A DNA stretch of 64,000 nt from Eledone cirrhosa (Eukaryota): assembly GCA_964016885.1 (NCBI GenBank), contig OZ024740.1, forward strand, positions 131,440,001 through 131,504,000, given 5' to 3'. Shown in pieces: positions 3,680 to 58,077 of the stretch (the stretch's first letter is position 1; each line of letters begins with the position of its first letter). The notes under the pieces are model-generated. The model searched no databases. It saw only the letters and a program-made list of their open reading frames with translations, and was not told the origin of the DNA. Both the position numbers and the translations under genes were made by a program.

Positions 3680-3790
3680 AATATATATATATTATGTATA
3701 TATATATATATATTTATATCTATATATATATTAGATATAAATATATATATATTATATATATATATATATATTTATATATATTTATATATT
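1905..3790. repeat. ~1.9-kb imperfect (TA)n tract
   Basis: Almost pure A/T alternation with TT interruptions. The YI-repeat ORFs here are artefacts. Confidence 0.95.
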
Positions 3791-4468
3791 GGAATAAATG
3801 CTCTGAAATAGCGATATATATGTGAATATAGACATAGAATATTCGAAAATATTCTGTATGTTTATAATAAACATTTTGAAGACCTAATCGCTATAGAATA
3901 GAATACGTCACGTATTACAATTAGATTCTCGATAAAAGCAAGGGAAGTAATCTACGCGTTTCATTCTTATTAGAAATCTTCAGGACCACATATCCAATGC
4001 TTTTATCGAGAATGACACAGCTAGAGACTTATAGAATACTTAGCTGTGTACAGGAACTGGTTTGAAAGAGCGGTTGCCGGTCCGGCAGAAATTAGAAATT
4101 GGAATAAATGCTCTGAAATAGCGATATATATGTGAATATAGACATAGAATATTCGAAAATATTCTGTATGTTTATAATAAACATTTTGAAGACCTAATCG
4201 CTATAGAATAGAATACGTCACGTATTACAATTAGATTCTCGATAAAAGCAAGGGAAGTAATCTACGCGTTTCATTCTTATTAGAAATCTTCAGGACCACA
4301 TATCCAATGCTTTTATCGAGAATGACACAGCTAGAGACTTATAGAATACTTAGCTGTGTACAGGGACTGGTTTGAAAGAGCGGTTGCCGGTCCGGCAGAA
4401 ATTAGAAATTGGAATAAATGCTCTGAAATAGCGATATATATGTGAATATAGACATAGAATATTCGAAA
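3791..4468. repeat. 310-bp tandem repeat, ~2.2 near-identical copies, running into the gap
   Basis: ggaataaatgctctgaaatagcg recurs at 3791, 4101 and 4411. Confidence 0.93.
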
Positions 4469-4668
4469 NNNNNNNNNNNNNNNNNNNNNNNNNNNNNNNN
4501 NNNNNNNNNNNNNNNNNNNNNNNNNNNNNNNNNNNNNNNNNNNNNNNNNNNNNNNNNNNNNNNNNNNNNNNNNNNNNNNNNNNNNNNNNNNNNNNNNNNN
4601 NNNNNNNNNNNNNNNNNNNNNNNNNNNNNNNNNNNNNNNNNNNNNNNNNNNNNNNNNNNNNNNNNNNN
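4469..4668. other. Assembly gap (200 N)
   Basis: Run of 200 Ns between two different satellites. Confidence 0.99.
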
Positions 4669-7600
4669 TGTTTCCTCAAAAACCAGTATGACTCTAAAAA
4701 CCGGTTTGTCTGTGTGTTTACATACAGAATAGCTGGACACTCACAGTAAAGTGACCAGTGAAAAACTCGGTACATCTACATATGTATACGTGTGTGTATT
4801 CCTATGCATACTAGTATTTCAGTATACATATGTGGATGTACATTTTTAACTTAATTGTTTAAGCGTCAGTCATACAAAAGTGAGTTACAAACGAAGCGAA
4901 ATTTAATTTCGTTTCGTTATTTGTTTTTATCGTCTCCGTTGAACCGGTACGTACTCACGCTCTATGCAAATTGGTCTGCCCACTACTAATTTTCATAGAA
5001 AAGGCATATAACGATATGTGCTTTTACGATTCTCTAGAAGGGCCGGAAGATAGGTAAATATTGCTGATGAGATGTAACAACATCGAAACAAGTTCAATGT
5101 TCCTTGTCTGGCTTTCTGGAGAATAGAGGAAAGGTCTTTCCTCAAAAACCAGTATGACTCTAAAAACCGGTTTGTCTGTGTGTTTACATACAGAATAGCT
5201 GGACACTCACAGTAAAGTGACCAGTGAAAAACTCGGTACATCTACATATGTATACGTGTGTGTATTCATATGCATACTAGTATTTCAGTATACATATGTG
5301 GATGTACATTTTTAACTTAATTGTTTAAGCGTCAGTCATACAAAAGTGAGTTACAAACGAAGCGAAATTTAATTTCGTTTCGTTATTTGTTTTTATCGTC
5401 TCCGTTGAACCGGTACGTACTCACGCTCTATGCAAATTGGTCTGCCCACTACTAATTTTCATAGAAAAGGCATATAACGATATGTGCTTTTACGATTCTC
5501 TAGAAGGGCCGGAAGATAGGTAAATATTGCTGATGAGATGTAACAACATCGAAACTAGTTCAATGTTCCTTGTCTGGCTTTCTGGAGAATAGAGGAAAGG
5601 TGTTTCCTCAAAAACCAGTATGACTCTAAAAACCGGTTTGTCTGTGTGTTTACATACAGAATAGCTGGACACTCACAGTAAAGTGACCAGTGAAAAACTC
5701 GGTACATCTACATATGTATACGTGTGTGTATTCATATGCATACTAGTATTTCAGTATACATATGTGGATGTACATTTTTAACTTAATTGTTTAAGCGTCA
5801 GTCATACAAAAGTGAGTTACAAACGAAGCGAAATTTAATTTCGTTTCGTTATTTGTTTTTATCGTCTCCGTTGAACCGGTACGTACTCACGCTCTATGCA
5901 AATTGGTCTGCCCACTACTAATTTTCATAGAAAAGGCATATAACGATATGTGCTTTTACGATTCTCTAGAAGGGCCGGAAGATAGGTAAATATTGCTGAT
6001 GAGATGTAACAACATCGAAACTAGTTCAATGTTCCTTGTCTGGCTTTCTGGAGAATAGAGGAAAGGTGTTTCCTCAAAAACCAGTATGACTCTAAAAACC
6101 GGTTTGTCTGTGTGTTTACATACAGAATAGCTGGACACTCACAGTAAAGTGACCAGTGAAAAACTCGTTACATCTACATATGTATACGTGTGTGTATTCA
6201 TATGCATACTAGTATTTCAGTATACATATGTGGATGTACATTTTTAACTTAATTGTTTAAGCGTCAGTCATACAAAAGTGAGTTACAAACGAAGCGAAAT
6301 TTAATTTCGTTTCGTTATTTGTTTTTATCGTCTCCGTTGAACCGGTACGTACTCACGCTCTATGCAAATTGGTCTGCCCACTACTAATTTTCATAGAAAA
6401 GGCATATAACGATATGTGCTTTTACGATTCTCTAGAAGGGCCGGAAGATAGGTAAATATTGCTGATTAGATGTAACAACATCGAAACTAGTTCAATGTTC
6501 CTTGTCTGGCTTTCTGGAGAATAGAGGAAAGGTGTTTCCTCAAAAACCAGTATGACTCTAAAAACCGGTTTGTCTGTGTGTTTACATACAGAATAGCTGG
6601 ACACTCACAGTAAAGTGACCAGTGAAAAACTCGGTACATCTACATATGTATACGTGTGTGTATTCATATGCATACTAGTATTTCAGTATACATATGTGGA
6701 TGTACATTTTTAACTTAATTGTTTAAGCGTCAGTCATACAAAAGTGAGTTACAAACGAAGCGAAATTTAATTTCCTTTCGTTATTTGTTTTTATCGTCTC
6801 CGTTGAACCGGTACGTACTCACGCTCTATGCAAATTGGTCTGCCCACTACTAATTTTCATAGAAAAGGCATATAACGATATGTGCTTTTACGATTCTCTA
6901 GAAGGGCCGGAAGATAGGTAAATATTGCTGATGAGATGTAACAACATCGAAACTAGTTCAATGTTCCTTGTCTGGCTTTCTGGAGAATAGAGGAAAGGTG
7001 TTTCCTCAAAAACCAGTATGACTCTAAAAACCGGTTTGTCTGTGTGTTTACATACAGAATAGCTGGACACTCACAGTAAAGTGGCCAGTGAAAAACTCGG
7101 TACATCTACATATGTATACGTGTGTGTATTCATATGCATACTAGTATTTCAGTATACATATGTGGATGTACATTTTTAACTTAATTGTTTAAGCGTCAGT
7201 CATACAAAAGTGAGTTACAAACGAAGCGAAATTTAATTTCCTTTCGTTATTTGTTTTTATCGTCTCGGTTGAACCGGTACGTACTCACGCTCTATGCAAA
7301 TTGGTCTGCCCACTACTAATTTTCATAGAAAAGGCATATAACGATATGTGCTTTTACGATTCTCTAGAAGGGCCGGAAGATAGGTAAATATTGCTGATGA
7401 GATGTAACAACATCGAAACTAGTTCATTGTTCCTTGTCTGGCTTTCTGGAAATAGAGGAAAGGTGTTTCCTCAAAAACCAGTATGACTCTAAAAACCGGT
7501 TTGTCTGTGAGTTTACATACAGAATAGCTGGACACTCACAGTAAAGTGACCAGTGAAAAACTCGGTACATCTACATATGTATACGTGTGTGTATTCATAT

Positions 7601-10370
7601 GCATACTAGTATTTCAGTATACATATGTGGATGTACATTTTTAACTTAATTGTTTAAGCGTCAGTCATACAAAAGTGAGTTACAAACGAAGCGAAATTTA
7701 ATTTCGTTTCGTTATTTGTTTTTATCGTCTCCGTTGAACCGGTACGTACTCACGCTCTATGCAAATTGGTCTGCCCACTACTAATTTTCATAGAAAAGGC
7801 ATATAACGATATGTGCTTTTACGATTCTCTAGAAGGGCCGGAAGATAGGTAAATATTGCTGATGAGATGTAACAACATCGAAACTAGTTCAATGTTCCTT
7901 GTCTGGCTTTCTGGAGAATAGAGGAAAGGTGTTTCCTCAAAAACCAGTATGACTCTAAAAACCGGTTTGTCTGTGTGTTTACATACAGAATAGCTGGACA
8001 CTCACAGTAAAGTGACCAGTGAAAAACTCGTTACATCTACATATGTATACGTGTGTGTATTCATATGCATACTAGTATTTCAGTATACATATGTGGATGT
8101 ACATTTTTAACTTAATTGTTTAAGCGTCAGTCATACAAAAGTGAGTTACAAACGAAGCGAAATTTAATTTCCTTTCGTTATTTGTTTTTATCGTCTCCGT
8201 TGAACCGGTACGTACTCACGCTCTATGCAAATTGGTCTGCCCACTACTAATTTTCATAGAAAAGGCATATAACGATATGTGCTTTTACGATTCTCTAGAA
8301 GGGCCGGAAGATAGGTAAATATTGCTGATGAGATGTAACAACATCGAAACTAGTTCAATGTTCCTTGTCTGGCTTTCTGGAGAATAGAGGAAAGGTGTTT
8401 CCTCAAAAACCAGTATGACTCTAAAAACCGGTTTGTCTCTGTGTTTACATACAGAATAGCTGGACACTCACAGTAAAGTGACCAGTGAAAAACTCGGTAC
8501 ATCTACATATGTATACGTGTGTGTATTCATATGCATACTAGTATTTCAGTATACATATGTGGATGTACATTTTTAACTTAATTGTTTAAGCGTCAGTCAT
8601 ACAAAAGTGAGTTACAAACGAAGCGAAATTTAATTTCGTTTCGTTATTTGTTTTTATCGTCTCCGTTGAACCGGTACGTACTCACACTCTATGCAAATTA
8701 GTCTGCCCACTACTAATTTTCATAGAAAAAGCATATAACGATATGTGCTTTTACAATTCTCCAGAAAGGACGGGAGATAGGTAAATGTTGCTGATGAGTT
8801 GTAACAACAACGAAACTAGTTCAATATTCCTTGTCTGGCTTTCTGGAAAATAGAGGAAATTTGTTTCCTCAAAAACCAGTATGACTCTAAAAACCGGTTT
8901 GTCTGTGTGTTTACATACAGAATAGCTGGACACTCACAGTAAAGTGACCAGTGAAAAACTTGGTACATCTACATATGTATACGTGTGTGTATTCATATGC
9001 ATACTAGTATTTCAGTATACATATGTGGATGTACATTTTTCACTTAATTGTTTAAGCGTCAGTCATACAAAAGTGAGTTACAAACGAAACGAAATTTAAT
9101 CTCGGTTCGTTATTTGTTTTTATCGTCTCCGTTGAACCGGTACGTACTCACACTCTATGCAAATTAGTCTGCCCACTACTAATTTTCATAGAAAAAGCAT
9201 ATAACGATATGTGCTTTTACAATTCTCCAGAAAGGCCGGGAGATAGGTAAATATTGCTGATGAGTTGTAACAACAACGAAACTAGTTCAATATTCCTTGT
9301 CTGGCTTTCTGGAGAATAGAGGAAAGGTGTTTCCTCAAAAACCAGTATGACTCTAAAAACCGGTTTGTTTGTGTGTTTACATACAGAATAGACTAGTATT
9401 TCAGTATACATATGTGGATGTACATTTTTAACTTAATTGTTTAAGCGTCAGTCATACAAAAGTGAGTTACAAACGAAACGAAATTTAATCTCGTTTCGTT
9501 ATTTGTTTTTATCGTCTCCGTTGAACTGGTATGTACTCACACTCTATGCAAATTAGTCTGCCCACTACTAATTTTCATAGAAAAAACATATAACGATATG
9601 TGCTTTTACAATTCTCCAGAAAGGCCGGGAGATAGGTAAATGTTGCTGATGAGTTGTAACAACAACGAAACTAGTTCAATATTCCTTGTCTGGCTTTCTG
9701 GAAAATAGAGGAAAGGTGTTTCCTCAAAAACCAGTATGACTCTAAAAACCGGTTTGTCTGTGTGTTTATATACAGAATAGCTGGACACTCACAGTAAAGT
9801 GACCAGTGAAAAACTTGGTACATCTACATATGTATACGTGTGTGTATTCATATGCATACTAGTATTTCAGTATACATATGTGGATGTACATTTTTAACTT
9901 AATTGTTTAAGCGTCAGTCATACAAAAGTGAGTTACAAACGAAACGAAATTTAATCTCGTTTCGTTATTTGTTTTTATCGTCTCCGTTGAACCGGTACGT
10001 ACTCACACTCTATGCAAATTAGTCTGCCCACTACTAATTTTCATAGAAAAAGCATATAACGATATGTGCTTTTACAATTCTCCAGAAAGGCCGGGAGATA
10101 GGTAAATGTTGCTGATGAGTTGTAACAACAACGAAACTAGTTCAATATTCCTTGTCTGGCTTTCCGGAGAATAGAGGAAAGGTGTTTCCTCAAAAACTAG
10201 TATGACTCTAAAAACCGGTTTGTCTGTGTGTTTACATACAGAATAGCTGGACACTCACAGTAAAGTGACCAGTGAAAAACTTGGTACATCTACATATGTA
10301 TACGTGTGTGTATTCATATGCATACTAGTATTTCAGTATACATATGTGGATGTACATTTTTAACTTAATT
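4669..10370. repeat. 466-bp satellite, ~12 copies
   Basis: The same 60-aa pseudo-ORF recurs at 5024, 5490, 5956, 6422, 6888, 7819, 8285, 8751, 9217, 9606 and 10072. One unit has a 77-bp deletion near 9391. Confidence 0.97.
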
Positions 10371-12091: not shown

Positions 12092-14747
12092 ATGAATGAA
12101 CTCACTACTCTGGCATCACTGAAGGACATCCCATTACCGGGTAAAAGAGAATACACCAGGAATTTCACTAAGAGTGCTGACTCCCTAATACGCAGGATGC
12201 GGTGGAGGGCTTACCACTCTGATAGAGGAAACCCCAAAATTTTAATAACCAAAAAATCATGGAGTGCCTCTTCAGATCAAGAATAACGCCCCCCCCCCCA
12301 CAACATACTATTGGAAAAGTTTCAGAACGAAATGATGGCATCATTTACATCATCAAATTTTCCGACCACCCATACCGGGGTTGAGAATACCTTAGACGAC
12401 TGGAAAATGGAATTACCGAGCGTAAGGAATCTACAGGAATACTCGTCCATGCTGACAAAACCAACAAGCTTTACAGCATGGACGTTCAACTTTACCATGA
12501 GCTAATCCTCAGGGAATTGAGAAAAAGCTACAAAAAAAAACGACCGAGGCTACACTGGAGCATATCAACATCAAGGCTTATGAGATCGTATCTGGTCTTG
12601 GTATAGATGATAGGACGGCCCCATACCAACCAAGGGAACCGAGGATTACCATTAAGGACTACAAAACAAACTTTGAGTCTAACCTCCCGGTCAGAATGAT
12701 AGCCCCCTCCCGGTCAGACATGGGGGTTATTAGCAAAAGCATTTTAGATAGGATCCTCCCCACACTTAAGAGTAAAAATGTTACAACTCTGATCCTGCAC
12801 CAGCCAGCTGCTGGACTGGTTTACAGTTTTACCTGACAAACATACCACCAGCTTCATACAACTAGACATCAACAATTACTACTCTTCTATCTCGCCTATA
12901 GTCCTGAACAAGACACTCATATTCGCGATGAATAGGACATACCTAACACGCGAGGAGGTCCGAAATATACACGCCGCCAGAAAGACTCTGATGCGATTCA
13001 GTGGTGACATATGGACCCGGAGTGACTGGCCAAATAATTTTGACATTACAATGGGCTCCAGTGACTCCGCGCAGCTAACGGACTTGGTTGGAATAAACAT
13101 ACTCTAGGAGATCAGGAGGGAAATACCCAACCTGGGTGGCGGGCTGTACCGAGACGACGCACTCTTCACCGTACTGGACGACAGCACCACAATGGTCGAA
13201 AATATGAAGAGGATAATTAGGCACTTCTTTAGCAAGGTAGGAATTAAGGTAGAGATGGAACCCAATAGAAAAGTAGTGACTGTCCTGGACACCACCCTCA
13301 ACCTTAACACCAAGCTACACCACCCATATCATAAACCCAATGAGGAGCTGGTGTATATCAACGCTGGGTCTAATCACCCTAGATCTATAGTTAAGGTCAC
13401 AGTTATGAGTGTCTCTGATAGGATCTCTAAATTATCGGCCAATAAAGAGATCTTCAATAGTAACGCTGATTACTATAACTCAGCGCTAGATAAGGCGTCC
13501 CACAGCGATAGGATCAGCTATAACCCTATGGGACATGATCGAGATGACCCAAGGGTACCCCGGACCAATACCATCAGGAGCATGAGTGGCCCACCTAATA
13601 CCTCGGTAACAAGTAGTAACACTCCCAGACCCTTATCCGTCACCACCCCCGGTAGAAGGTCCCGCCTACCCCATCGGTCTAATACCTACAACGCTGAATA
13701 CCACTGTGCTGCGGAGCATAGGCACCCCTGCACCGGCCCCACAACACGCCGAACCATAATTGAGCAAGGAGGCCGCACCTCGCAGGTTTATAATCCCACG
13801 GTGGGCCCATATAACCCTCATGATAGTGACCGCTCCGCACACCCAAGTGACACCAACCGACCTCGACCTGACCTGTGCACAACCACGCGATGGCCCACGG
13901 CGGACACCCAACAACCCCGAAAGAATAGGACGAGGTATGTCAAATGGTATAACCCTCCGTAATGGGTGGGTCTACGTACCTACCAGCCTGGCTAGAACAT
14001 TATTTAGAGTACTGGATAAATGATTCCCTAGGGCCCACAAGTAACATAAAATATTCAACAGGCCAACGGTGAAACTTTCCTACTCAACCACACGCTCCGT
14101 AGCCCAGCACATAGCTGGTATAAATAGGAATAGGCTCACTGCCTATAATACCACCGTAAACCCCGGAGCCACCGAACAGGACCAGCACGCGGGACGCAGC
14201 AGAACCCGGACAGGCAAAACTAGCACACCGGAACCCAACGACCTTGTGCTGATTGCGGAGGCTACACAGCCAACCCTGAGTGATGGTAACGACGCGGTAT
14301 ATGTGGTGGGGCTTAAGAAGTCATGTAATTGCAGAGACCCATCACTATGCCCCCCTTAGTAATGAATGTATGACGAAAAACCTGGTCTACAGATGCAAAA
14401 TGACAACGCCTAACTCGGAGCACCACTACATAGGATCCACAGCGACGAGCTTCAAAGATCGGTGGTATAACCATCGCTATTCCTTTAACAGAATACATAA
14501 GAGGAAATGTACGGCCCTTTCTGAATTGATCTGGAAGTTGAAACTTGAAAAGACCCCGCACTCTCTGGTCTGGTCGGTGGTTAGAAAGGCTCCTCCAGAC
14601 AGAGGCGGGTCTGGTATTTGCAACCTCTGGCTTAGAGAGACACTCGAGATTCTTCATGGCGGAACCAAGCTATTAAACAGAAATGTCGATTTATTCGGTG
14701 CCTGCAGACACCTAAGGACGGGAACTTTACTCAAGCTATATGGATAA
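12092..14747 (+). pseudogene. PLE reverse transcriptase + GIY-YIG endonuclease, frameshifted with stops
   Basis: Motifs across frames: SLKDIPLP..RMRWRA, ADKT, ITIKDYKTNF, QLDINNYYSSI, FDITMGS, GLYRDD, WYNPP, KIFNR.TVKLSYS, CNCR..CP, VYRC..YIGST..FKDRWYNH, TALSELIWKLK, LLNR..CRH. This matches the Naiad-type PLE consensus as I know it. Confidence 0.88.
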
Positions 14748-18673: not shown

Positions 18674-18848
18674 ATAATGAGATCAAAAGATTGTTAAAAG
18701 AGTTCCCTGCTTGCAATTGTTTATTAAGCATCATATCATGTCTCACTATTTTATCTGATGAGAACACAAATATCATCCCAAGATGATATTTGTTTTTGAA
18801 ATGCGCATAATAAAATACATGGAAGTCTTTTAACCATCTTTTTGATCT

Positions 18849-18914
<66 letters not shown>

Positions 18915-19007
18915 AAACAGAATAGTATTCACCGTATTTTTAACTAAAGTAATTTAACATAATATGGGGGTTTAGAAACCTCAGATAAAAAGGAAAAAGA
19001 TGAGTAT

Positions 19008-19077
19008 TGACGTACATGGGAGCGAACCCATTTTTTGGTTACCCAGACCACTGTCCTAACATTACACCAATAACATC
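19008..19077 (-). tRNA. tRNA-like unit, inverted degenerate copy (anticodon GGG)
   Basis: Reverse complement of the array cloverleaf. Confidence 0.4.
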
Positions 19078-20212
19078 ACCCATCTGCATCCTTTAAAATT
19101 AGAAGCTACATTCTTAGCGAGTATAAATGACAAGTAAGTATCTTTTGAAACAGTGAGCAGGATTCAAATTAGAAAATAGAATAGCTTTCACCGTACTTTT
19201 GACTAAAGAAATTTTAGCCTCATAATGTGGTTTTAAATTCTCAGAGGAAAAGGAAAGAGATGAGTATTGACGTACATGGGAGGCAAACCCACATCTTTAG
19301 TTATTTGTCAAAAATACGGTGAAAGCTATTCTATTTTATAATTCCAAATGTGCTCACTGTTTCAAAACATACTTACTTGTCATTTAGTGTCGCTAAGAAT
19401 GTAGCTTCTAATTTGAATGGAAGCAGATGGGTTATGTGTTGGTGTAATGGTAGCACAGTGGTCTAGATAAGCAAAGATTGGGGTTCGACTCCAATGTACG
19501 TCAATACTCATATTTTTTTCATTTTATCTGAGTGTTCTAAACCCCATTATCAGGCTAACATTTATTTAGTCGAAAAAAAGGTGAGAGCTATTTTATTTTA
19601 GAATTTCAAACCTGCTCACTGTTTCAAAACATACTTACTTGTCATTTATACTCGCTAAGATTGTAGCTTCTAATTTGAACGGAAAGAGATGGATGATGTG
19701 TTGGTGTAGCGGTAGCACAGTGGTCTGGATAACCAAATATGCGGGTTCATCTCCCATGTACGTCAATACTTATCTTTTTCCATTTTATCTGACGATTCTA
19801 ATCCCCATTATCAGGTTAACATTTATTTAGTGAAAAATACGGTGAAAACTATTCTATTTTCTAATTTCAAACCTGCTCACTGTTTCAAAACATACTTAGC
19901 ATTTATTGTCGCTAAGAATGTAGCTTCTAATTTGAATGGAAGGAGATGGGTGATGTTGTCGGGTAAAGGTAGCAGAGTGGTTTGGGTAACCAAAGTTGTG
20001 GGTTCGACTCCCATGTACGATAATACTCATCTTTCTCCATTTTATCTGAGGGTTCTAATCCCCATTATAAGGCTAACATTTCTTTAGTCGAAAATACGGT
20101 GAAAGCTATTTTATTTTCTAATTTTAAACCTGCTCACTGTTTGAAAACATACTTACTTGTTATTTATACTCGCGAAGAATATAGCTTCTAATTTGAATGA
20201 AAAGAAATGGGT

Positions 20213-20283
20213 GATGTGTTGGTGTAACGGTAGCACAGTGGTCTGGAAAACCAAAGATGTGGTTTCGAATCCCATGTACGACA
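20213..20283 (+). tRNA. tRNA-like cloverleaf, anticodon GGA, short variable loop (representative copy)
   Basis: GATGTGT-TG-GTGT-AACGGTA-GCAC-A-GTGGT-CTGGAAA-ACCAA-AGAT-GTGGT-TTCGAAT-CCCAT-GTACGAC-A, 71 nt. Confidence 0.5.
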
Positions 20284-20981
20284 CTACTCATTTTTTCCAT
20301 ATTATCTGAGACTTCTAAATCCCATTATCAGGCTAAAATGTTATTAATCAAAAATACGATGAATGCTATTCTATTTTCTAATTTCAAACCTGCTCATTCT
20401 TTCAAAACATTTATACACTCTAAGAATGTAGTTTCTAATTTGAATGGAAGGAGATGGGTGATGTGTTGGTGTAGCGGTAGCACAGTTGTCTGGATAACCA
20501 AAGAAGTGGGTTTGACTCTCATGTACGTCAATACTCATCCTTTTTCATTTTATCTGAGGGTTCTAAACCCCATTATCAGGCTAAAATTGCTTTAGTCAAA
20601 TATGCGGTGAATGCTATTCTATTTTCTAATTTCAAACCTGCTCACTGTTTCAAAACATAACTACTTGTCATTTATACTGTCTAAGACTGTAGCTTCTAAT
20701 TTGAATTGAAGGAGATGGGTGATGTGATGTTATAACGGTGGCACAGTGGTCTGGAAAGCCAAAGATGTGGGTTCGAATCCCATGTATGACAATACTCATA
20801 TTTTTCCATTTTATCTGATGCTTCTAATCCCCATTATCAGGCTAAAATTTCTTTAATCGAAAATACGGTGAAAGCTATTATATTTTATAATTTCAAACCT
20901 GCTTACTGTTTCAAAACAAACTTACTTGGCATTTATACTCGCGAAGAATATAGCTTCTAATTTGAATGGAAGGAGATGGGT

Positions 20982-21052
20982 GATGTGTTGGTCTAATGGT
21001 AGGACAGGGCTCTGGATAACCAAAGATGTGGGTTCGACTCCCATGTACGTCA
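20982..21052 (+). tRNA. tRNA-like cloverleaf, anticodon GGA (representative copy)
   Basis: Intact acceptor and T arms, D-stem GTC/GAC, weakened anticodon stem, TTTTT ~10 nt downstream. Confidence 0.5.
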
Positions 21053-22009
21053 ATACTCATCTTTTTCCATTTTATCTAAGGGTTCTAAACCCCATTATCA
21101 GGCTAACATTTCTTGACTTCAAAATATGGTGAAAGCTATTCTATTTTACAATTTCAAACCTTTTCACTGTTTCAAAATATACTTACTTGGCATTTACTGT
21201 CGCTAAGAATGTAGCTTCTAATTTGAATGGATTGTGTTGGTATAACAGTAGCACAGTGGTCTGGAAAACCAAAGATGTGGGTTCGAATCCCATGTACGGC
21301 AATACTGATCTTTTTCCATTTTATCTGAGTCTCTAAACCCCATTTTCAGGCTAAAATTAATTACTCAAAAATGCGGTGAATGCTATTCGATTTCCTAATT
21401 CCAAACCTGCTCATTCTTTCAAAACATACTTACTTGTCATTTATACTCACTAAGACTGTAGCTTCTAATTTGAATGGAAGGAGATGGGTGATATGTTGGT
21501 GTAGCGGTATCACAGTTGTCTGGATTACCAAAGGTGTTGGTTAGACTCTCATGTACGTCAATACTCATCCTTTTCCATTTTATCTGAGGGTTCTAAACCC
21601 CATTATCAGGCTAAAATTAATTACTAAAAAATGCGGTGAATGCTATTCTATTTTCTAATTTGAAACCTGCTTACTGTTTCAAAACAAACCTACTTGTCAT
21701 TTATACTCGCAAAGAATATAACTTCTAATTTGAATGAAGGAAATGGGTGATGTGTTGGTGTAATGGTAGCACAGGGCTCTGGATAACCAAAGATGTGAGT
21801 TCGACTCCCATGTACGTCAATAGTCATCTTTTTCCATGTTATCTAAGGGTTCTAAACCCCATTATCAGGCTAAAATTTCTTGACTTCAAAATACGGTGAA
21901 AGCTATTCTATTTTACAATTTCAAAACTTTTCACTGTTTCAAGGTATACTTACTTGGCATTTACTGTCGCTAAGAATGTAGCTTCTAATTTGAATGGGTA
22001 GAAATGGGT

Positions 22010-22080
22010 GATGTGTAGGTATAACAGTAGCACAGTGGTCTGGAAAACCAAAGATGTGGGTTCGAATCCCATGTACGTCA
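22010..22080 (+). tRNA. tRNA-like cloverleaf, anticodon GGA (representative copy)
   Basis: Anticodon arm gtggt-CTGGAAA-accaa, T arm gtggg-TTCGAAT-cccat, 3' gtacgtca. D-loop mutated. Confidence 0.45.
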
Positions 22081-25000
22081 ATACTGATCTTTTCCCATTT
22101 TATCTGAGGATTCTAAACCACATTATCAGGCTAAAATTAATTACTAAAAAATGCGGTGAATGCTATTCGATTTCCTAATTCCAAACCTGCTCACTCTTTC
22201 AAAACATAATTACTTGTCATTTATACTCACTAAGACTGTAGCTTCTATTTGAATGGAAGAAGATGGGTGATATGTTGATTTAACGCTAGTACAGTTTTCT
22301 GGATAACCAAAGATGTAGGTTCGATTCCCATGTACGTCAATATTCATCTTTACCATTTTATCCGAGGCTTCTAAACCCCATTATCAGGCTAAAATTTCTT
22401 GACTTAAAAATACGGTGAAAGATATTCTATTTCATAATTTCAAACCTGCTCACAGTTTCAAAATATACTTACTTGGCACTTACTGTCGCTAAGAACGTAG
22501 CTTCTAAATTGAATGGAAGGAGATGGGTGATGTGTTGGTGTAATGGTAGGACAGGGATTCTGGATAACCAAAGATGTGAGTCCGACTCCCATGTACGTCA
22601 ATACTCATCTTTTTCCATTTTATCTAAGTGTTCTAAACCCCATTAGCAGCCTAAAATTTATTTAGTCAAATATGCGGTGAATGCTATTCTATTTTCTAAT
22701 TTCAAGCCTGCTCACTGTTTCAAAACATACTTAATTGTCATTTATACTCACTAAGATTGTGGCTTCTAATTGGAATGGAAGGAGATGGGTGATATGTTGG
22801 TGTAGCGGTACCACAGTTGTCTGGATTACCAAAGATGTGGGTTCGACTCTCGTGTACGTCAATACTCATCCTTTTCCATTTTATCTGAGGGTTCTAAACC
22901 CCATTATCAGGATAAAATTTAATTAGTCAAAAATGCGGTGAATGCTATTCTATTTTCTAATTTCAAACCTGCTCATTCTTTCAAAACATTTATACTCGCT
23001 AAGAATGTAGTTTCTAATTTGAATGGAAGGAGAAGGGTGATGTGTTGCTGTAGCGGTAGCACAGTTGTCTGGAGTTCCAAAGAGGTGGGTTCGTCTTTCA
23101 TGTACGTCAATACACATCCTTTTCCGTTTTATCTGAGGGTTCTAACCCACATTATCAGGCTAACATTTCTTTAGTCAGAAATACGGTGAAAGCTATTCTA
23201 TTTTCTAATTTCAAACCTGCTCACTGTTTCAAAACATTTTTACTCGCTAAGAATGTAGTTTCTAATTTGAATGGAAGGAGATGGGTGATGTTTTTGTGTA
23301 ACGCTAGCACAGTGGTCTGGATAACCAAAGATGTGGGTTCGACTCCCAAGTACATAAATACTCATCTTTTTCCATTTTATCTGAGGCTTCTAAACCCCAT
23401 TATCAGGCTAATATTTCTTGACTTGAAAATACGGTGAAAGGTATTCTATTTCATAATTTCCAACCTGCTCACGGTTTCAAAATATACTCACTTGGCATTT
23501 AACATCGTAAAGAAAGTAGCTTCTAATTTAAATGGAAGGAGATGGGTGATGTGTTGGTGTAATGGTAGGAGAAGAGGTCTGGATAACCAAAGATGTGGGT
23601 CCGACTCCCATGTACGTGAATACTCATCTTTTTCCATTTTATCTAAGGGTTCTAAACCCCATTATCGGGCTAAAATTTAGTAAGTCAAAAATGATTTGAA
23701 TGCTTTTCTACTTTCTAATTTCAAAGCTGCTCATTCTTTCCAAACATTTATACATGCTAAGAATGTAGTTTCTAAGTTGAATGAAAGGAGATGGATGATG
23801 TGTTGGTGTAGCGGAGCACAGTCGTCTGGAAAACCAAAGATGCGGGCTCAAATCCCATCTACGTCAATACTCATATTTTTACATTTTATCTGAGGCTTCT
23901 AAACCCATTATCAGGCTAAAATTTCTTTAGTCGAAAATGAGATGAAAGCTATTCTATTTTCTAATTTCAAAACTGCTCACTATTTCAAAACATAATTACT
24001 AGTCATTTATACTGTCTAAGACTGTAGCTTCTAATTTGAATTGAAGGAGATGGGTGATGTGATGTTATAACGGTGGCACAGTGGTCTGGAAAGCCAAATG
24101 TGTGGGTTCGAATCCCATGTACGACAATACTCATATTTTTCCATTTTATCTGATGCTTCTAATCCCCATTATCAGGCTAAAATTTCTTTAGTCTAAAATA
24201 CGGTGAAATGTATTTTATTTTATAATTTCAAACCTGCTCACTGTTTCAAAACAAACTTACTTGTTATTTATACTCGCAAAGAATATAGCTTCTAATTTGA
24301 ATGAACGGAGATGGGTTATTTGTTGGTGTAATGGTATGACAGGGCTCTGGATAACCAAAGATGTGGGTTCGACTCCCCTGTACGTCAATACTCATCTTTT
24401 TCCATTTTATCTAAGGGTTCTAAACCCCATTATCAGGCTAAAATTTAGTGAGTCAAAAAAGTATATTCTATTCTAATTTCTAATTTCAAAGCTGCTCATT
24501 CTTTCAAAACATTTATACATGCTAAGAATGTAGTGTCTAAGTTGAATGGCAGGAGGTGGGTGATGTGTTGGTGTAGTGGTAGCACAATCGTCTGGAAAAC
24601 CAAAGATGTGGGTTCGAATTCCATGTACGTGAATACTCATACTTTTCCATTTTATCTGAGGCTTCTAAACCTCATTGTCAGGCTAAAATTTCTTTAGTCG
24701 AAAATAAGGTGAAAGCTATTCTATTTTCTAATTTCAAACCTGCTCATTCTTTCAAAACATAATTAGTTGTCATTTATACTCACTAAGACTGTAGCTTCTA
24801 ATTTGAATGGAAGGAGACGGGTGATTTGTTGGTGTAACGCAAGTACAGTGGTTTGGATAACCAAAGATATAGGTTCAACTCTCATGTATCTCAATACTCA
24901 TCTTTTCCCATTTTATCTGAGGCTTCCAAATCCCATTATCAGGCTAAACATTCTTGACTTAAAAATACGGTGGAAACTATTCTATTTTATAATTTCAAAC

Positions 25001-26069
25001 CTGCTCACAGTTTCAAAATATACTTACTTGGCATTTACAGTCGCTAAGAATGTAGGTTCTAATTTGAATGGAAAGCAATGGGTAATGTGTTGGTGTAATG
25101 GTAGCCGAGTGGTCTGGAAAACCAAATATGTGGGTTCAAATCCAATGTACGTCAATACTCATCTTTTTCCATTTTTTCGATTTTATCTGAGGCTTCTAAA
25201 CCGCATTATCAGGCTAAAATTTAATTAGTCAAACATTCGGTGAATGCTATTCTAATTTCTAATTTCAAACCTGCTGACTGTTTCAAAACATACTTACTTG
25301 TCATTTATACTCGCTAAAATTGTAGCTTCTACTCTGAATGGAAGGAGATGGGTGATGTGTTTCTGTAATGGTAGCACAGTGGTCTGGATACCTAAATACG
25401 CTGGTCCGGCTCCCATGTACGTCAATACCCATATTTTTTTAATTTTATCTGAGGGTTCAAAACCCCACTATCAGGCTAAATTATTTAGTCATATATACGG
25501 TGAAAGCTATTCTATTTCATAATTTCAAACCTGCTCACTCTTTCAAAACATGCTTACTTGTCATTTATACTCGCTAAGAATGTAGCATCTAATTTGCACG
25601 GAAGAGATGCGTGATGTGTTGGTGTAATGGTAGCACAGTGGTCGTCATAACCAAAGATGTTGGTTCAACTCCCATGTACGTCAATGCTCATCTTTTTCCA
25701 TTTTATCAGAGGGTTCTAAACCCCATTGTCAGGCTAAAATTGTTTTAGTAAAATATACGGTGAAAGCTATTCTATTTTCTAATTCCAAACCTGCTCACTC
25801 TTTCAAAACATTCTCACTTGTCATATATATATATACGTATATTCATATATATTGCTCTGCTTTGTGGGCAGCTAAACGGCAAACAATCATCAATTAAGCT
25901 GTGGGGGTAGTGGCTTTTTAAGGAACCCTTCAAACTAAAAAAAAAAAAAAGATCTAGAATTGATCGCTGGCAATGAAATTGTCGGAAATATATATCTCCG
26001 TTTAATTGTTCATTTATCGAGTAAAATAGGTAAGGGATGGACACCGCCTATATCTATTCTTTGACTTAT

Positions 26070-32203: not shown

Positions 32204-34350
<2,147 letters not shown>

Positions 34351-45256: not shown

Positions 45257-47460
45257 CCCAGATGGTGTGCAGGGGTATTGGATTAAAAATTTAACATCCC
45301 TCCACCCGAAGCTGACGGCAATGTTCAATGATTGCTTGGTGTCGGGTGAGGTGCCAGAGTGGTTGACAAAAGGTACCACAGTTCTGATAATGAAAGACCG
45401 AATCAAGGGTAATGATGTTACCAACTATAGACCTATCACATGTCTGTCCGTAATGTGGAAACTGTTGACGAGCATTGTGTCTGAGGAAATCTACCATCAC
45501 CTCCACACAAACAACTTGTTACGACGAACAGAAAGGATGCCGAAAGAAGTCACGTGGTACAAAGGACCAGTTACTTATTGATAAGATGGTAATGGGGAAT
45601 TGCAGGAGGAGACACACTGATCTTAACATGGGATGCATAGACTACAGAAAGGCATTTGACATGGTGCCTCATTCTTGGATCACCAAAAGCCTGGAGATCT
45701 TCAGGGTGTTAGATAACATCAGACAGTTGCTGGGCAGGAGTATGGGGTCCTGGGAGACGGAGTTGACATCAACTGGATTATCCTTGGGAAGCGTGAAGAT
45801 CAAGAGAAGTATCTTCCAGGGAGATAGCCTGTCCCCTCTGTTGTTTGTCCTTGCCCTGATGCCCTTGACCATTATGCTGCGAAAAGTGAGAGCAGGATAC
45901 AAGTTGGGAAACGGAGAGCTTACCATCAATCACCTCCTCTTCATGGACGATCTTAAGCTCTTCGGGAAAAGTGAGAAGGAGTTGGATGTGCTTGTTGACA
46001 CTGTCCGTATTTTTAGCAGTGATATATGTATGCAGTTTGGTATTAGTAAATATGGAGTCATTGTGATGAGGAGGGGTAGGTTGAGCAGAAGTAACGGGAT
46101 CCAGATACCAACAGGTGAGATGATAAAGGAAATTGACTCTGAGGAAAGATACAAGTATATGGGCGTTCTGGAGGCTGATGGCATAAAGAACAAAAAAATG
46201 AAGGAATTGTTAAGAACTGAATACATTCGGAGAGTAAGGAGCGTATTGAAGTCACATCTGAACAGCAGAAATGCCATAAGCGCAGTAAATTCCCGAGCTG
46301 TGTCTATTATTAGGTACAGTGCGGGAATTCTGAGATGGAATGTTGCTGAACAAAAAGAAATGGATAGGAAGACTAGGAAGCTATTGACTATCTACAACAT
46401 GTTCCAATAGGGGAGTGATGTCGATAGACTCTACCTAAGGAGATCTGAGGGTGGAAGAGGTCTTATCAGCATAGAGGACTGTGTTCAGATGGAGAAAAAC
46501 AACCTATACAAATACGTGACCTATATTAAGGAGCCAATGCTCAGAACTGTACTGAAGGAGGGGACAGTAGGCGAGGGGATGTCCAAGGAGGAAATAACAT
46601 CAAGGAGGAAGAGCAGCCTTAAGGGAAAATCCCTTCATAGTACCTTCTTTGAGAAAACTGAATTTAGAGATCCACAGACATGGAACTGGTTGAGAAGAGG
46701 AGACCTCAAAAAGGCTACAGAAGGAATGCTAATGGCTGCGCAGGAGCAGGCCCTCAAAACGAAGTGGTTGACGCACCATATTTACAAGGAGGAGACTAGC
46801 CCACTGTGCAGGATCTGTAGAGAGAGAGAGGAGACTGTGGCTCACATTGTGTCCGAGTGTAAACACCTAGCCCAGACCCACTATAAGGGCTGGTGACACG
46901 ATGTGATGGGCAGGGTGATCCTCTGGCACCTGTGCAAAGTAAACAATTTACCACATTCTGAGAAATGGTATGAGCATAGGCCAGAGGCGGTGATGGAGAA
47001 CAACCAGGTGAAGGTGCTGTGGGATTTTAGGATACAGACGGACAAAAAACTGGAACACAATAGACCTGACCTGGTGGTTGTGGACAAAGAAAAAAGATCG
47101 TGTCTGATTGTGGATGTGGCCTGCCCTTTCGACACGAGAGTGCAAGAAAAGGAGAGGGAGAAAATTAACCGATACCAGGACCTAAAGTGGGAGGTGAAAA
47201 GGATTTGGAACTGCCATGAAGTCTAAGTGATCCCGATTGTCATAGGCGCACTGGGGACTATCTCCAAAAGTTTCCAGGGATGGTTAAAGAAAATCGGCCC
47301 CTTCACGCTTTTTGGAACGCTTCAAAAGGCATGCTTGCTGGGAACAGCAAGAACCCTCCGATACGTCCTGAATATCTGAGGCTGCAGGTAGTGGCTTGAT
47401 ATTCATTCCAACGGACTTTCCAGTTAACCAACATCAATGACTAAGATTCAAGGAATAACA
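45255..47460 (+). mobile_element. 5'-truncated Dong/R4-clade non-LTR retrotransposon in a (TAA)n tract
   Basis: RT motifs [52 protein letters not shown]. Also GGRGL, CRIC..H..C and RPD..D..K..Y.DL. (TAA)n on both sides, the known Dong target. Few stops and frameshifts. Confidence 0.92.
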
Positions 47461-47497: not shown

Positions 47498-49130
47498 TTT
47501 CATTTATTAGCCACAAGGGCCGACATGTAGGGGACAATACAAAGACAGGGACAGTGGGGGTTTACAATAAGGTCGAGTAAAAATGCACAATGGCAAGACT
47601 AATTTAACAATGAAAATATAAAATATAAAATAAACTATGCAAAATGTAACAAAATAAATTCCCCGATAAGGGGTGGACGACCCTGGGGTATTCGGGTGCC
47701 CCACCAATCCTGAACCACCCTGCGCTTCTAGGGCACCCAGGAGAGCACCCCTCTCCTCAAGTTAGCTAGCCTATAGGCGCATGGTCAGAGTAGGCCCATT
47801 CACACGAGCCATTCTTGCCACATTCACCCACCTTTTAGCAAATGTACTGGGGGCCAGCACTTCTCTCTCCACCCTCAACCTCCTTTCCAGGTGAAACTTG
47901 AAGAAGTTGATGAGGGATTGGCCGAAGAGAAAAGTGCCTGTCTTTAGTCCTTTCAACCTGGTCCACCATATAATCTCTTTCGCAACTGCCACCAGACAGA
48001 GGAAAATGTCCTGCTCTTCCTGACCTAAGGAAGGTGGCGGCTCGATCTTCACTATGGACTCGGCCGATAACTGGATTCGTTCCACACACAACAGTAGGTG
48101 TTCGACATAACTCCACAAGTCAGTAATGCACGGACATTGGACAAGTGCGTGCAGAACGGTTTCGTCGTTCTGTGCGCATCTTGGGCAGGTCCGTCTGACA
48201 GCACTTCCGTGCCTGTAGAGTTTATCCCGAACCGGCAGTGCCCCCCGGTAGCACTGCCAAGCGAGGGATTTCTGGAAATTGTCCATCGTCCCCGGCTCAA
48301 AAGTCCTCCGGTACAGACTGGTCAGTTCGACTTCGTCGAGGCCCAAAGCTTCTCCGAGTGCGTCATCGCACTTGCCCACCACTAATCCTCTATAAAACTC
48401 GAGAGTGGAAGTTCCACTGATCGCATTGCCCGCTTGGTAGAGGGCAGTGAGTGCCTGGCAACATTCCAGGTGCCAGTCACCAAGTCTCGGTCTCTTCTTG
48501 ACCCAGGACTGCAGCTCAGTCAAAGAAATGAGCTGCGGAAAGGCCCGTCTGATAAACGGCGACCACACCTGTTCACCATTGAGGCAGAATATCTGGAGAT
48601 GTCGCAGCCTCAACGCATGTCTGCGCATCATTAGCCACGGCATGCCCAGCCCTCCGTGTAGAGGGTGCTGGCAGCAGATGGACCGCCTCACCAACGGAAC
48701 TTGTCCCCTCCACAAGAATTTGAAGAGCAGCCGTTCCAACTTGACGAGGCGCGGACGGAGGCAATGCACGACGGTTAGGCGGTAATAGATGACGGACGCG
48801 ATGTACGCATTCGCCACCTACGCGCGACCTTTCAGTGATAGCTTCCTCCCAGCCCATTTTTGGGTGAGACTGGCTACTCTGCTCGTTACCTCGTCCCAAT
48901 TCTTTTCCACCTGGAGGTCTGGTCCGAACCAAACCCCGAGCAACTTTACTGGTCCGTCCGTCCAGCGCCCCACGACGCTGTTGGACGGCATGGGCTTGCC
49001 TCTCCAGGTTCCGAGCTGCAAGCCCACCGACTTTTCCGGGTTAAGTTTGGCTCCTGTCAACCTTTCATATTCTTTCAATAAGGTGCCGACCACCTCGATT
49101 TCTGAGGTGTTCGACACCATCACGGTGATA
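47496..49130 (-). mobile_element. Tx1/L1-clade LINE, 3' part (RT C-terminus + zf-RVT)
   Basis: GAKLNPEKS, LLGVWF, W..RKLSLKGR, FKFLW..HGGLGMP, CPRC..ETVLHALVQC; (ATT)n tail. Confidence 0.9.
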
Positions 49131-49139
49131 ATAATAATA

Positions 49140-52100
49140 GTTTGTTTATTGGCCACAAGGCCTAACATGACTAAAGACATTACTGACAGCACAGCACGGT
49201 ACAAGACGATACAAAGTGGGTTTTGGCCGTGTAAACAGGTTATAACAAGATAGAAAAAAAAATTCTAACATCAAAAATTCCCCAAAAAGAGGGAGACATC
49301 CGATGGTCACTCGTGGTAAAAACCATACAAAAGACCACGGCCACCAATGTTTTATTTATTAACTCCAAGGGTTGACAAAATTATAATATTAAGAACAGCT
49401 TGATACAAACAGAGGATGTCTCAAAAAAAGAAACAAGTAAAAATCCCCCAGCAGAGGGAGACTTCCGAGGTTCGCTCGTGGAGACAGCCCAGAAAAAAGC
49501 AACGGTTACACTGACCGCTAAGGAAAGTGCCCCTTTTCAGTTTTCCTCATACGATGCTAAAGGCACATGCTCCGGGTTAGCCCATTCACAGGGGCAATTC
49601 TTTCTTCTCTCGACCACCTTTCCATAAACTGGCTGAAAGGCAGCAATACCCTTTCCACCCTAATTTTCCTTTTCAGGTGAAACCTGATAAAGTTAATGAA
49701 TGCGTCACCGTAGAGGAATGTACCCGTCTTCAACCCTTTCAGACTCGTCCACCATACGATATATTTTACCATGGCCACCAGGCAGATAAAAACTGCCTAT
49801 CCTACCGGCTAAAGGAAGGCGGCGTGGCAATCCACACGATGGACTCAGATGATAGCCTGATCCGTCATACACGCGACAGCAGGTGTTTGTGATAAACCCG
49901 CAAGACAAGTGCGTGCAAGACGGCACTTGCATTCCGACAGACGGCACTTGCATTCCTGTAGAGATTATTCCGAATTGGCAAAGCTCCTCGACAGCTCTGC
50001 CAGGCCAGGGCTTTCTGGAAGCTTTCCATGGGCCCCGGCCCGAAAGTTATCCCGAAGAGATTGGCTAGTTGTTTTTCGTCGACGCCTAGAGTTTCCCCAA
50101 GTACGTTGTCGCACTTTCCCTTCACTAATCCTCTATAGAACGCCAAAGTGGAGGTTCCACCGATCATTACTCGACTGGTCAAGGGTTGAGAGCGGCTGGA
50201 ACGTTCCAGTCTCCAAGCGCTCACTCTCGGTCTTCGCTTGACCCAGGACTGCAGCTCCGTCAATGGGACGAGCTGGGGAAAGACGCGTCTAGCAAACGGC
50301 GAACGCACCTGATCACCCTCGAGGAAGAGGTGGAGATGTCGTAGCCTGAGCTCGTGTCTGCGCATCATCAGCCACGGCATGCCCAGCCCTCCACGTAGAG
50401 GGTGTTGACAGCAGATGGACAGCCTGACGATCGGAGCGCGTCCCTTCCACAAAAAGCGAAAGAGCAAACGCTCCAGCTCAGTCAGGCGGGGCTTAGGACA
50501 AGGTACGACTGCCAGGCGGTAGTAGATGACGGACGCGATGTACGCATTACCCATCTTCGCTCGACCTGTCAGGGATAGGCTCCTCTCCGCCCATTTCTGG
50601 AGCTCCGAACCGAATCAGACCCCTAGCAATTTAACCGGTCTGTCCGTCCAGGGCCCGACGACGCTGTTGGACGACATGGACCTGCCTCTCCAGGTGCCGA
50701 GCTGCAGGCCCACTAACTTTTCCTGGTTGATTATTGCTCCTGTCACCGCTTCGTATTCTCTTAGTGTAGTGCCGATCGCCTCGATGTGTTTGGCGTTCGA
50801 CACCACTACGGTGACATCGTCCACATATGCTGACACAGATCTTCCGCATCCTAGATCGCGCGGGATCCACCTCAACGTCTCCAGTTCGTGCAGTAATGGC
50901 TCGAGAGTCAATACGTACAAGAGGGACGATTGGGGACATCCTTGGTAGACCGAGCGCATGATGTTGAACAGTTCCCTAAAGGTTCACTCTCACCACAGAG
51001 CAGATGTCGTTGTGCATGGCAGTGATCCATCCTCTGAAGACGGGCCCAGAGCGAGCCGCCCTCAGGACTGCCGGCAGATAACGATGGTCGACCCTATCGA
51101 AAGCTTTCGACTGATCTAAATTGATCAAGAACCCACCCGTGCCAAGTTCCCTAGCTACCCTCTCCACGAGGTATCGCATGAGGTGGAGGTTGTCTTGGAC
51201 GGATCTGTCGAGAATTTTGCATGTCTGCGCCTCTCCCACCAGACCATCAACGACAAGCGCCAACCTTTTGAACTCTTCAAAACTTGAACTCTGTGATTAG
51301 CAGAGTTATGGGCCTAAAATTATCTATGTTATCCCTCTTGTTCGGATCCTTTCTCATCAGCGCCACAGCTGGGAATTCTCCCGTTCTGTTGCCAATTGCC
51401 AAGTAGTCTGACCTCCGTACGCCTCCGAACAAGTCTAGCATCTGTACGTAAAGTTCATAGGGCAGACCATCCAAACCAGGCCATTTACCCCTTGTGCAGC
51501 CAGTCATTGCCTCCCGTACTTCAGCGGCTGTTATCGGCTTTTCGCAACACTCCGCCTCAGTGGCCGAGTGCCGCGTCAGTCCGTCGATGTAGACACTAAA
51601 GTCCATCCCTCGATCCGGCCCGCCGCTGCCCCCGAACAGCTGTGGGAAGTGTCGCTGAAAAGGTTCACACATTTTCCCGAGATCGAGTAGCATGCGCCCG
51701 TCGTGGTACACCAAAGACCGGATCGTGGATTTGTTGCCACGACGCGGCTCCGACATTCGGGCCCATTGAACGGCTTTCGTCCCCTCGTGTTTGAGAGCAC
51801 GCACCCTAGCTCTGACAACGCAGCCTTCGTTCTTTGCATTGAAGAATTGGTCAAGGGCCAATTTCGCCGCAAGAACGTCGGTCGCGATGCCTTTGCTAAG
51901 CGCCTCGTCTAATTTTCTAACTAATTCTCCCTCTGCTCTATTGTTCTCTCTTGCTAAAGCCTTACTAAACCTAATGGATTCTATTCTAATTGCTCTTTTC
52001 AGGGCAAACCACCAATTGTTGTTTACGATGGCCCCCGTCAAGGCCCACTTAACTAGTTCGCTAATCAGGTCTCTGTAGGCCTTGGGCGCTGGTAAGGACG

Positions 52101-54570: not shown

Positions 54571-54892
54571 AGGGAGGGAGAGAGACAATCTTCTATCTGC
54601 TGTAGTGATGATTGAGGAAGAAGAAGACGGAATCAGTGGGAGTGACCTATGAAAATTCTTTTTCGTAGCCATGTTGTTGTTTTTTTTTGTTTAAAATAAA
54701 TATTGGGCACAAAACCCCAATAAGCAGTTATTTAACCCCGAAGGGCCAAATAACGGGCAGAAAGACCCCTCTCATGAGGAGGAGGGTGTTTTTGTCTACA
54801 AGTTCGTTAAAGTTTTAAACAATTTACAATTGTTATAGCGTTCAAAATTTACAATACCTTACAGAGCCGAGCCTCCGTCAACCATAGCATTC

Positions 54893-54945
<53 letters not shown>

Positions 54946-54947
54946 TA

Positions 54948-55112
54948 ATAATTGTTTCTAATGTTGCCACAAGGCCAGCAATTACCCAGTGCATTACAGC
55001 TACTTTATTTTATCGACTCCGTAAGGATGAATGGCATAGTTAACATCGGTGGGATTTGAACTCAGAATAGCAAGGGCCTTAACTCTATGCGTCAAAGCAT
55101 GGTTTCCAAACC
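54948..55112 (-). mobile_element. tRNA-derived SINE with (ATT)n tail
   Basis: Reverse-strand B box gagttcaaatccc, core and tail; (TAA)n at 54893-54950. Confidence 0.8.
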
Positions 55113-55126
55113 CTAATAATAATAAT

Positions 55127-57330: not shown

Positions 57331-57382
57331 GAAGAAGAAGAAGAAGAAGAAGAAGAAGAAGAAGAAGAAGAAGAAGAAGAAA
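57330..57382. repeat. (GAA)n microsatellite at the LINE 5' junction
   Basis: Direct reading. Confidence 0.95.
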
Positions 57383-58077
57383 TAAGGTAGTAACCGCAAA
57401 TCAATATGATGTGTTAATGGATGCATGGAAATTAATATCAATATACTCGCTAACATATCTTCGTAGTAAACCAAATTATATAACGAAATTATAATTAGCA
57501 CGCTTTAGACGTGAGAACAATAATGATGTAAATGTATGACTACTTTAAAAAGTTAGGGAAGAAAATTATGAAATTTTAATTAAGTAGATTTCATAAACTC
57601 TGACATCCTGTTGGAAGAAAGTAGGGTGATAATTATTATACCTCATTGGCGATATTTATTCTAGCTGTGATTGGAAGATCTATGCATCTTCATGAGATTT
57701 AATTACTACTTATTTAATGCTATATTAAACGTGCTGTAAATGAAGCCGTTATATTTCAAATTGAAGCTAAAGACAGGAAAAAGAATACGGATTTATATCG
57801 TATATGGTACGATTCGCTCTCTGCGAAAACAGTATCAGCAGTTTTGACTACTATAAAGTAAACAAATAAAAGGGCCATTGCACTAAAAGTTTGCTTGATT
57901 TAAATATCACTCCACTCTATTTCAAATAGGGGTGCGTTTTTTGTTGGGGGGGAGGGTCCTTTTATCATCACTACAAGCCTAGTGTGTAGCGTTTTCTGCA
58001 TAATATGTCTTAAATACAAGTATTTGTGATTGGGTGATTGTTTGTATTTTTGTTTAGAGGAAACGAAGAAATATATG

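Follow-up and report, generated by a model that had tools for sequence, protein, structure and literature searches.

The window analysed here, a stretch of 64,000 nucleotides from Eledone cirrhosa (contig OZ024740.1, positions 131,440,001 to 131,504,000), holds 25 tandem copies of a short transfer RNA (tRNA)-like body with the anticodon GGA. The question raised by this locus is whether these are mismatched tRNAs that could mistranslate Ser codons or members of a tRNA-derived repeat family, the two possibilities offered by a sequence-only reading of the window. Only the second has held: the 25 tRNA look-alikes are decaying repeat copies and not tRNA genes. Nor is the array a plain satellite, as had also been considered, since the family to which it belongs is a mobile element with the insertion structure of Penelope-like elements (PLEs). 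With a probability of about 0.83, we read the array as one insertion of a dispersed 260-bp non-coding tRNA-headed repeat into a (TA)n tract, made by the reverse transcriptase (RT) and endonuclease of an autonomous PLE and amplified in place.

Tandem Repeats Finder (TRF) reported a tandem array at 19301-25829 with a period of 261, 25.3 copies and 81% matches, and the 25 units were aligned to one another, in agreement with the 25 units of about 260 bp first proposed. The anticodon position reads GGA in 22/25 units, AGA in unit 1, GGG in unit 3 and a scrambled loop in unit 25, as had been counted by hand, and position 37 is indeed often T (T 16/25, A 8/25, G 1/25). Motifs resembling the A and B boxes, and the variable loop of 4 nt, were also seen directly. 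The T run downstream of each body is present, but the supposed terminator forms one side of a stem between the leader and the trailer of the body. The inverted arm with its extra bodies, the (TA)n on both sides, the leader/trailer stem and a G.A stem pair had all been missed.

The Rfam tRNA model reached its gathering score in 12/25 units and ARAGORN called a tRNA in 2/25. The Rfam score, the GGA of 22 units and the A37 of eight are what speaks for functional short-arm GGA tRNAs mis-decoding Ser codons. A functional cytosolic tRNA gene is expected to have a purine at position 37 and a paired anticodon stem, whereas the family majority has T37 and a G.A as the first anticodon-stem pair. Such a gene is also expected to have a body conserved above its flanks and a fixed anticodon, and neither was found. 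In 28 dispersed loci, which are the best matches and hence young, divergence from the majority was 2.40% (91/3791) in the body vs 2.38% (283/11911) in the rest of the unit. Within the window array the figures were 10.5% (186/1773) vs 8.2% (344/4210), counts that are non-independent because units share variants, and in the two other long arrays of the family they were 7.8 vs 6.8% and 9.4 vs 8.2%. Among copies, the cloverleaf thus diverges as fast as the spacer, which is one of the outcomes that the sequence-only reading had named as refuting it, and the copies decay neutrally. Because GGA is retained in just 5/16 units of another long array and the sister subfamily D reads GGC at the anticodon position, GGA is inherited from one source and not selected, and is without a decoding role. 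The A37 form is private to the window array, and the acceptor stem runs on into the long stem, which would probably hinder end processing. Functional mis-decoding tRNAs are, on this evidence, extremely unlikely.

A search of the 3.0 Gb genome with one unit gave 1,330 first-look candidates. Three motifs were counted as exact matches genome-wide, with 4,659 for the 3' motif, 796 for the anticodon-arm one and 1,301 for the T-arm one, and 0 in reversed controls. The family comprises subfamilies A, A2, B and C plus D, whose own motifs match 123 and 247 times. The insertion structure was read from a sample of 61 loci obtained with the 3' motif alone, these being the first on contig C1 among the 4,659 matches, with 9 duplicates removed. 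Two further exclusions left 59 loci for the count of end pairs, and the D sample consisted of 69 loci out of the 247 matches. Segments of a single locus often have private variants in common, as expected if they were copied from one template. At one locus (L249) a C-type leader is joined to D-type 3' sequence, a possible template switch between subfamilies.

PLE insertions, and those of Naiads especially, are described as having 5' truncation, partial tandems, an inverted 5'-truncated copy, a 30-40 bp tail at one end and (TA)n targets (Craig et al. 2021, PMC8557442). The same features were found in the dispersed family. Both strands were present at 41/61 loci, 40 of them tail-out and 0 head-out, and 20/61 had no inverted arm; (TA)n was touched by 59/61 loci, on both sides in 47. 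In D, 51/69 loci were tail-out and 2 head-out, with (TA)n on at least one side in 59/69. Copies showed the 5' truncation and the partial or full tandems expected of a PLE-mobilised element. The 3' ends clustered at two fixed points, 40-60 bases apart, and 34/39 inverted A/B/C loci combined one short with one long 3' end. The spacing between short and long ends was ~40-45 in A and C and ~60 in B and D, compared with the published tail of 30-40. The D 3' ends fell near 171-174 and 231-237; the class of long ends had been cut too narrow for D, and the D pair count was therefore left unused. The window array is built in the same way, with the whole insertion (inverted arm and direct array) flanked by (TA)n on both sides, the short end on the inverted arm and the long end on the direct arm.

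PLE integration involves cleavage and extension of both strands, with the tail set by two internal sites of RT initiation, and does not require hammerhead cleavage (Frangieh et al. 2024, PMC11167929). Applied to the family, tandem copies would be transcribed as RNA of more than one unit, from the RNA polymerase III (Pol III) boxes of an upstream unit or by read-through, and in this RNA the body would form a cloverleaf carried by a long stem. As PLE biochemistry suggests, the (TA)n would then be cut on both strands by a PLE protein, which would initiate complementary DNA (cDNA) once per strand at a pair of internal sites separated by 40-60 nt; these two sites would give the short and long 3' ends seen. 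The pairing of one short with one long end at 34/39 inverted loci supports, in vivo, PLE integration on two strands from two start sites. A search of the Rfam ribozymes to E=5 over 18800-26000 returned only tRNA and TA-repeat microRNA artefacts and no hammerhead, and the hammerhead descriptor CUGAnGA..GAA was absent from both strands of the four subfamily majorities.

Inverted arms, TA flanks and three long arrays of 16-28 units might also be expected of a DNA-level element (foldback, miniature inverted-repeat transposable element (MITE) or Helentron-type non-autonomous) whose tandem repeats seed satellites and in which the tRNA-like part is a passenger. The fixed, matching terminal inverted repeats of a MITE or foldback were not seen, however: the arms are unequal, the outer ends differ in those same 34 of 39 loci, the inner junctions vary, a third of the sampled loci (20/61) have no inverted arm, and there are no fixed termini. 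The inner ends moreover follow an RNA feature, and the leader/trailer duplex is stronger in the sense strand (-19 to -25 kcal/mol) than in the antisense (-14 to -19 kcal/mol) by predicted RNA folding, owing to G.U pairs. We regard a DNA-level element as unlikely.

The leader before the body pairs with the T run after it in a stem of 17-20 bp including G.U pairs, which closes the cloverleaf. Compared with dinucleotide shuffles, this stem had a z of -4.0 in unit 7 and of -0.6 in unit 11, which is more decayed. Between subfamily majorities the body differed at 0/71 positions vs 25/150 in the rest for A-C, 4/71 vs 31/152 for A-B and 9/71 vs 60/150 for A-D, figures that are tilted towards conservation, since the initial sampling of the B, C and D bodies used a motif lying within the body. 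The changes were mostly one-sided and kept the pairs. Since the body is the conserved part between majorities and pairing mostly survives the changes, the fold, unlike the anticodon, seems to be important for the source elements. Body identity to tRNAs of the same genome was 44/71 for Gln(CTG), 35/71 for Gly(GCC) and 36-37/71 for Thr, and 42-43/71 positions were identical to the tRNA-like part of another repeat in the genome. Among the few isotypes compared (Gln, Gly and Thr), tRNA-Gln is the closest and a possible source.

A tRNA-like head with A/B-box motifs, the conservation of this body between lineages and the pieces of long interspersed nuclear elements (LINEs) common nearby would fit an ordinary LINE-dependent tRNA short interspersed nuclear element (SINE) that happens to form tandem arrays. 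A classical tRNA SINE starts at the tRNA head and has a single A-rich or repeat tail. Here the copies are instead circularly permuted, with starts elsewhere than at the head: of 20 segments reaching positions 1-9, 19 continue into the upstream unit and 1 ends at +1 to +9, and templates therefore begin upstream of the body. They have no A-rich or simple-repeat tail of their own, they have two 3' ends, and the whole 3' end is inverted tail-out, so that a SINE of the ordinary kind is very unlikely. No gathering of ends was seen at +1 or +72 either, and RNase P / RNase Z processing was rejected as a source of copy ends.

PLE proteins are plentiful in the genome, which counts for a PLE passenger: there are 10,596 first-look GIY-YIG candidates (150 scored) as well as long RT+GIY-YIG frames. 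Several results weigh against a PLE passenger or against a conserved fold. In all, 40 GIY-YIG loci shared no sequence with the unit, a sample far too small to exclude a partner among the 10,596. The 400 bases that precede each of 166 segments contained no PLE frame, and by eye or motif search the unit did not match the 3' ends published for octopus Naiads. A target-site duplication is not readable inside (TA)n. No double compensatory change was found among the four subfamily majorities, and the subfamily B majority has two acceptor pairs broken.

The units of the window array carry variants in common in blocks, with internal duplications 6~19, 8~11, 7~20~10 and 9~14; the pairs 6~19, 8~11 and 7~20 differ by 4.6%, 5.4% and 5.9% against a mean of 15%. 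One shared variant has 2 matches genome-wide, both inside this array. The variant blocks shared by units, and the absence of this variant from the rest of the genome, point to local amplification. Local unequal exchange may have built the long array, which would now be in neutral decay. The array was rejected as a source of the dispersed copies, given its private variant and the distance of its units from the young majority (6.5-17%). The family has two more long arrays, both A2-like, on contig C3 at 191349400-191353800 (16 units) and 271498900-271506100 (~28 units). These are separate expansions of another subfamily, independent of the window array; a common origin of the three was rejected, as the nearest cross-array units are at least 13% from those of the window array.

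The 5' ends of the copies were counted with one anchored-extension method throughout, on 80 A/B/C segments from the 61 loci and 86 D segments from the 69. Among segments reaching body position 69, 40/68 in A/B/C ended at 55-69 vs 9/66 in D (Fisher p 4e-8), with A contributing 18/27, B 7/14 and C 15/26. This 5' pile-up at 55-69, present in three subfamilies with A58 and not in D, is new here. It persists when one segment per locus is taken (31/52 vs 7/53) and in every divergence class, and copy age was accordingly rejected as its cause. The A/B/C stop rate in other 15-base windows was 0.3-1.1% per base, and D at 55-69 stops at its background rate. Many inversions are centred on a CATG palindrome at 61-64. 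One such opposite-strand joint (21042/21046) was found, along with the family, in three public DNA runs (X1, X4 and X5). D carries T instead of A58, with the same T stem and palindromes as A/B/C, and as it has no pile-up, neither palindrome nor T stem alone was accepted as the cause. The A, B and C majorities have a 5-bp T stem whose 7-nt loop contains GUUCRA, the substrate form of TRMT6/61A, and the D majority does not.

TRMT6/61A methylates GUUCRA T-loop-like sites in non-tRNA molecules, and the resulting N1-methyladenosine (m1A) stalls RT (PMC6076376). From this literature, and because the pile-up occurs in A58 subfamilies and not in D, we infer that A58 of the T loop may be methylated by the host tRNA methylase and may arrest the PLE reverse transcriptase. 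The arrested ends would then be trimmed to short microhomologies (CATG, GTAC and ACGT palindromes, or target AT) and joined into inverted pairs. Given the PLE model, arrest at m1A58 would have about even odds of being the cause of the pile-up. The full proposition is that there are hammerhead-less tRNA-headed PLE passengers in which a host methylase marks A58, the PLE RT is arrested and the copy ends are thereby set, so that thousands of insertions record germ-line RNA modification and the methylase brakes promoter-bearing copies. We put this forward tentatively, at somewhat less than an even chance.

A number of points count against m1A58. A58 was changed in 3/94 rows of read-through copies vs 6 at the next base, with no excess; this count was made by hand among 100 listed of the 1,301 T-arm matches, with 6 D-type rows set aside. 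Only 7/40 ends lie at 55-57, some including A58, and the other 33, at 60-68, need the trimming step. The comparison of D with A/B/C amounts to one lineage contrast; D departs from the others in the neighbouring T-loop base, the anticodon loop and the 3' region as well, and a different enzyme may have copied it. D moreover spread (247 matches) despite a broken B box, so that a Pol III promoter may not be needed. The same element and PLE route might hold with another source of the pile-up, namely RNA cleavage in the T loop, where the template would then begin, a protein bound to a T arm that is intact, or an enzyme of lower processivity in A/B/C than in D. The lack of misincorporation excess at A58, the position of most ends 4-12 nt downstream of it and the single lineage contrast all suit such a source, to which we likewise give rather less than half a chance. 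A general difference in processivity, or purging of promoter-bearing copies, nevertheless fails to explain the pile-up, because stop rates outside 55-69 are alike in A/B/C and D (6/78 vs 6/78 at 85-99; 4/72 vs 6/72 at 70-84), and age fails too. A58-dependent cleavage or protein binding is indistinguishable from m1A by DNA alone. If the truncation is due to m1A, insertion ends would be a DNA read-out of RNA modification, and subfamily D would be a simple natural mutant for testing the limits that tRNA-modifying enzymes place on retrotransposition.

Several known systems resemble the family in part, Schistosoma Sm-alpha and the non-LTR retrozymes most closely. Sm-alpha and Sj-alpha of Schistosoma are short tandem non-coding retroelements with a tRNA-derived part (tRNA-Gln in Sm-alpha) and many thousands of copies (PMC6765202, PMC2770079), and the upstream unit of Sm-alpha is thought to transcribe the next ones (PMC6765202). 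Sm-alpha has a hammerhead, however, and the family here none; the PLE-type inverted arms, two 3' ends and (TA)n targets of the latter do not figure for Sm-alpha in the available text of these two papers. The animal non-LTR (long terminal repeat) retrozymes are also low-GC monomer-to-multimer tandem units, of ~300 nt, and have been proposed as non-autonomous PLE derivatives (PMC7229834; bioRxiv 10.64898/2026.07.22.740005). They are defined by a type I hammerhead per unit and circular RNA, whereas the family here has a tRNA-like cloverleaf, and because it has no hammerhead it is not a retrozyme as defined. Similar in insertion habit are the Naiad/Chlamys PLEs and non-autonomous derivatives such as MRC1, which share (TA)n targets, tandem and inverted insertions, a tail at one end, the absence of a canonical hammerhead and multicopy head-to-tail non-autonomous forms (PMC8557442). 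They differ in that no tRNA-like part is described in the available text of that paper (tRNA occurs there once, about selenocysteine, and 0 times in the supplement), and no 3' match of the family to a listed cephalopod Naiad was found. Helenus tRNA-bearing terminal-repeat retrotransposons in miniature (PMC10886601) are another case of a tRNA piece captured by a non-SINE non-autonomous retroelement, often with disagreement between anticodon and body, but they have LTR structure, a primer-binding site and a target-site duplication and are mobilised by Gypsy/Copia and not by a PLE.

A recent octopus repeat annotation with 893 SINE families that are unclassified and recently active, plus 31 families of PLEs, describes no such element in its available text (PMC13282606). 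Literature searches, judged mostly from listings, gave no account of a tRNA-headed hammerhead-less PLE passenger or of truncation set by m1A58; Repbase/Dfam-type libraries were outside their scope and may hold the family unclassified. The present reading removes a false call of an odd tRNA, a kind of error likely to recur in repeat-rich animal genomes, and with it PLE-dependent short elements would gain a tRNA-bearing, hammerhead-less form. The parts of the insertion are given in Table 1.

Table 1. Parts of the insertion and its flanks, with positions in the window.
Feature	Position	Strand	Evidence
(TA)n tract, left flank, likely insertion target	18849..18914	.	TRF
Inverted, 5'-truncated arm, ~1.5 units; outer end is the short 3' end of the family	18911..19304	-	86-90% to subfamily A
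26th tRNA-like body (positions 7-71), near-complete, in inverted arm	19008..19070	-	
Partial tRNA-like body (positions 35-71) at inversion junction	19268..19304	-	
Direct tandem array, 25 units of ~260 bp; starts at ~unit position 132, ends at the long 3' end of the family	19304..25823	+	
First direct tRNA-like body, AGA at anticodon position	19433..19503	+	
Example 71-nt tRNA-like body, unit 7, T loop with A58	20982..21052	+	
Example leader/trailer stem around unit 7 body; its 3' strand is the T run that follows the body	20964..21073	+	z -4.0 vs dinucleotide shuffles
Last tRNA-like body, scrambled anticodon loop	25613..25683	+	
3' tail between short and long end points, direct arm only (start approximate)	25785..25823	+	
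(TA)n tract, right flank	25824..25835	.	

Elsewhere in the window, broken frames at 13108-14747 (+) and 33303-34118 (+) have by eye the look of Penelope-like RT and GIY-YIG pieces, and the first of them resembles Hydra-clade motifs. Pfam gave no match for three PLE-looking pieces of the window, and tblastn with three PLE frames gave no match within it. Pieces of non-LTR retrotransposon RT frames were recognised by eye at 45469-46896 and 47771-57504. Between two long (TA)n tracts at 3788-10370 there is a 466-bp tandem repeat of ~12 copies, 98% alike, together with a 310-bp doublet, and this 466-bp repeat may be another young PLE-type passenger.

Ordinary tRNA-Thr, tRNA-Gly and tRNA-Gln tandem clusters occur on contig C1 at 243.65-243.68 Mb (L052, L054), 141.18-141.28 Mb and 168.21-168.28 Mb. 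A second dispersed non-coding element of ~1.7 kb was observed between (TA)n tracts (L053, L055-L063; ~1173-2860 in L056). It begins with a hairpin and ends with an inverted internal copy of ~180 bases, and it carries a high-scoring tRNA-like gene (1501-1573 in L056), mostly with a GGC anticodon, whose anticodon loop and T arm resemble those of subfamily D.

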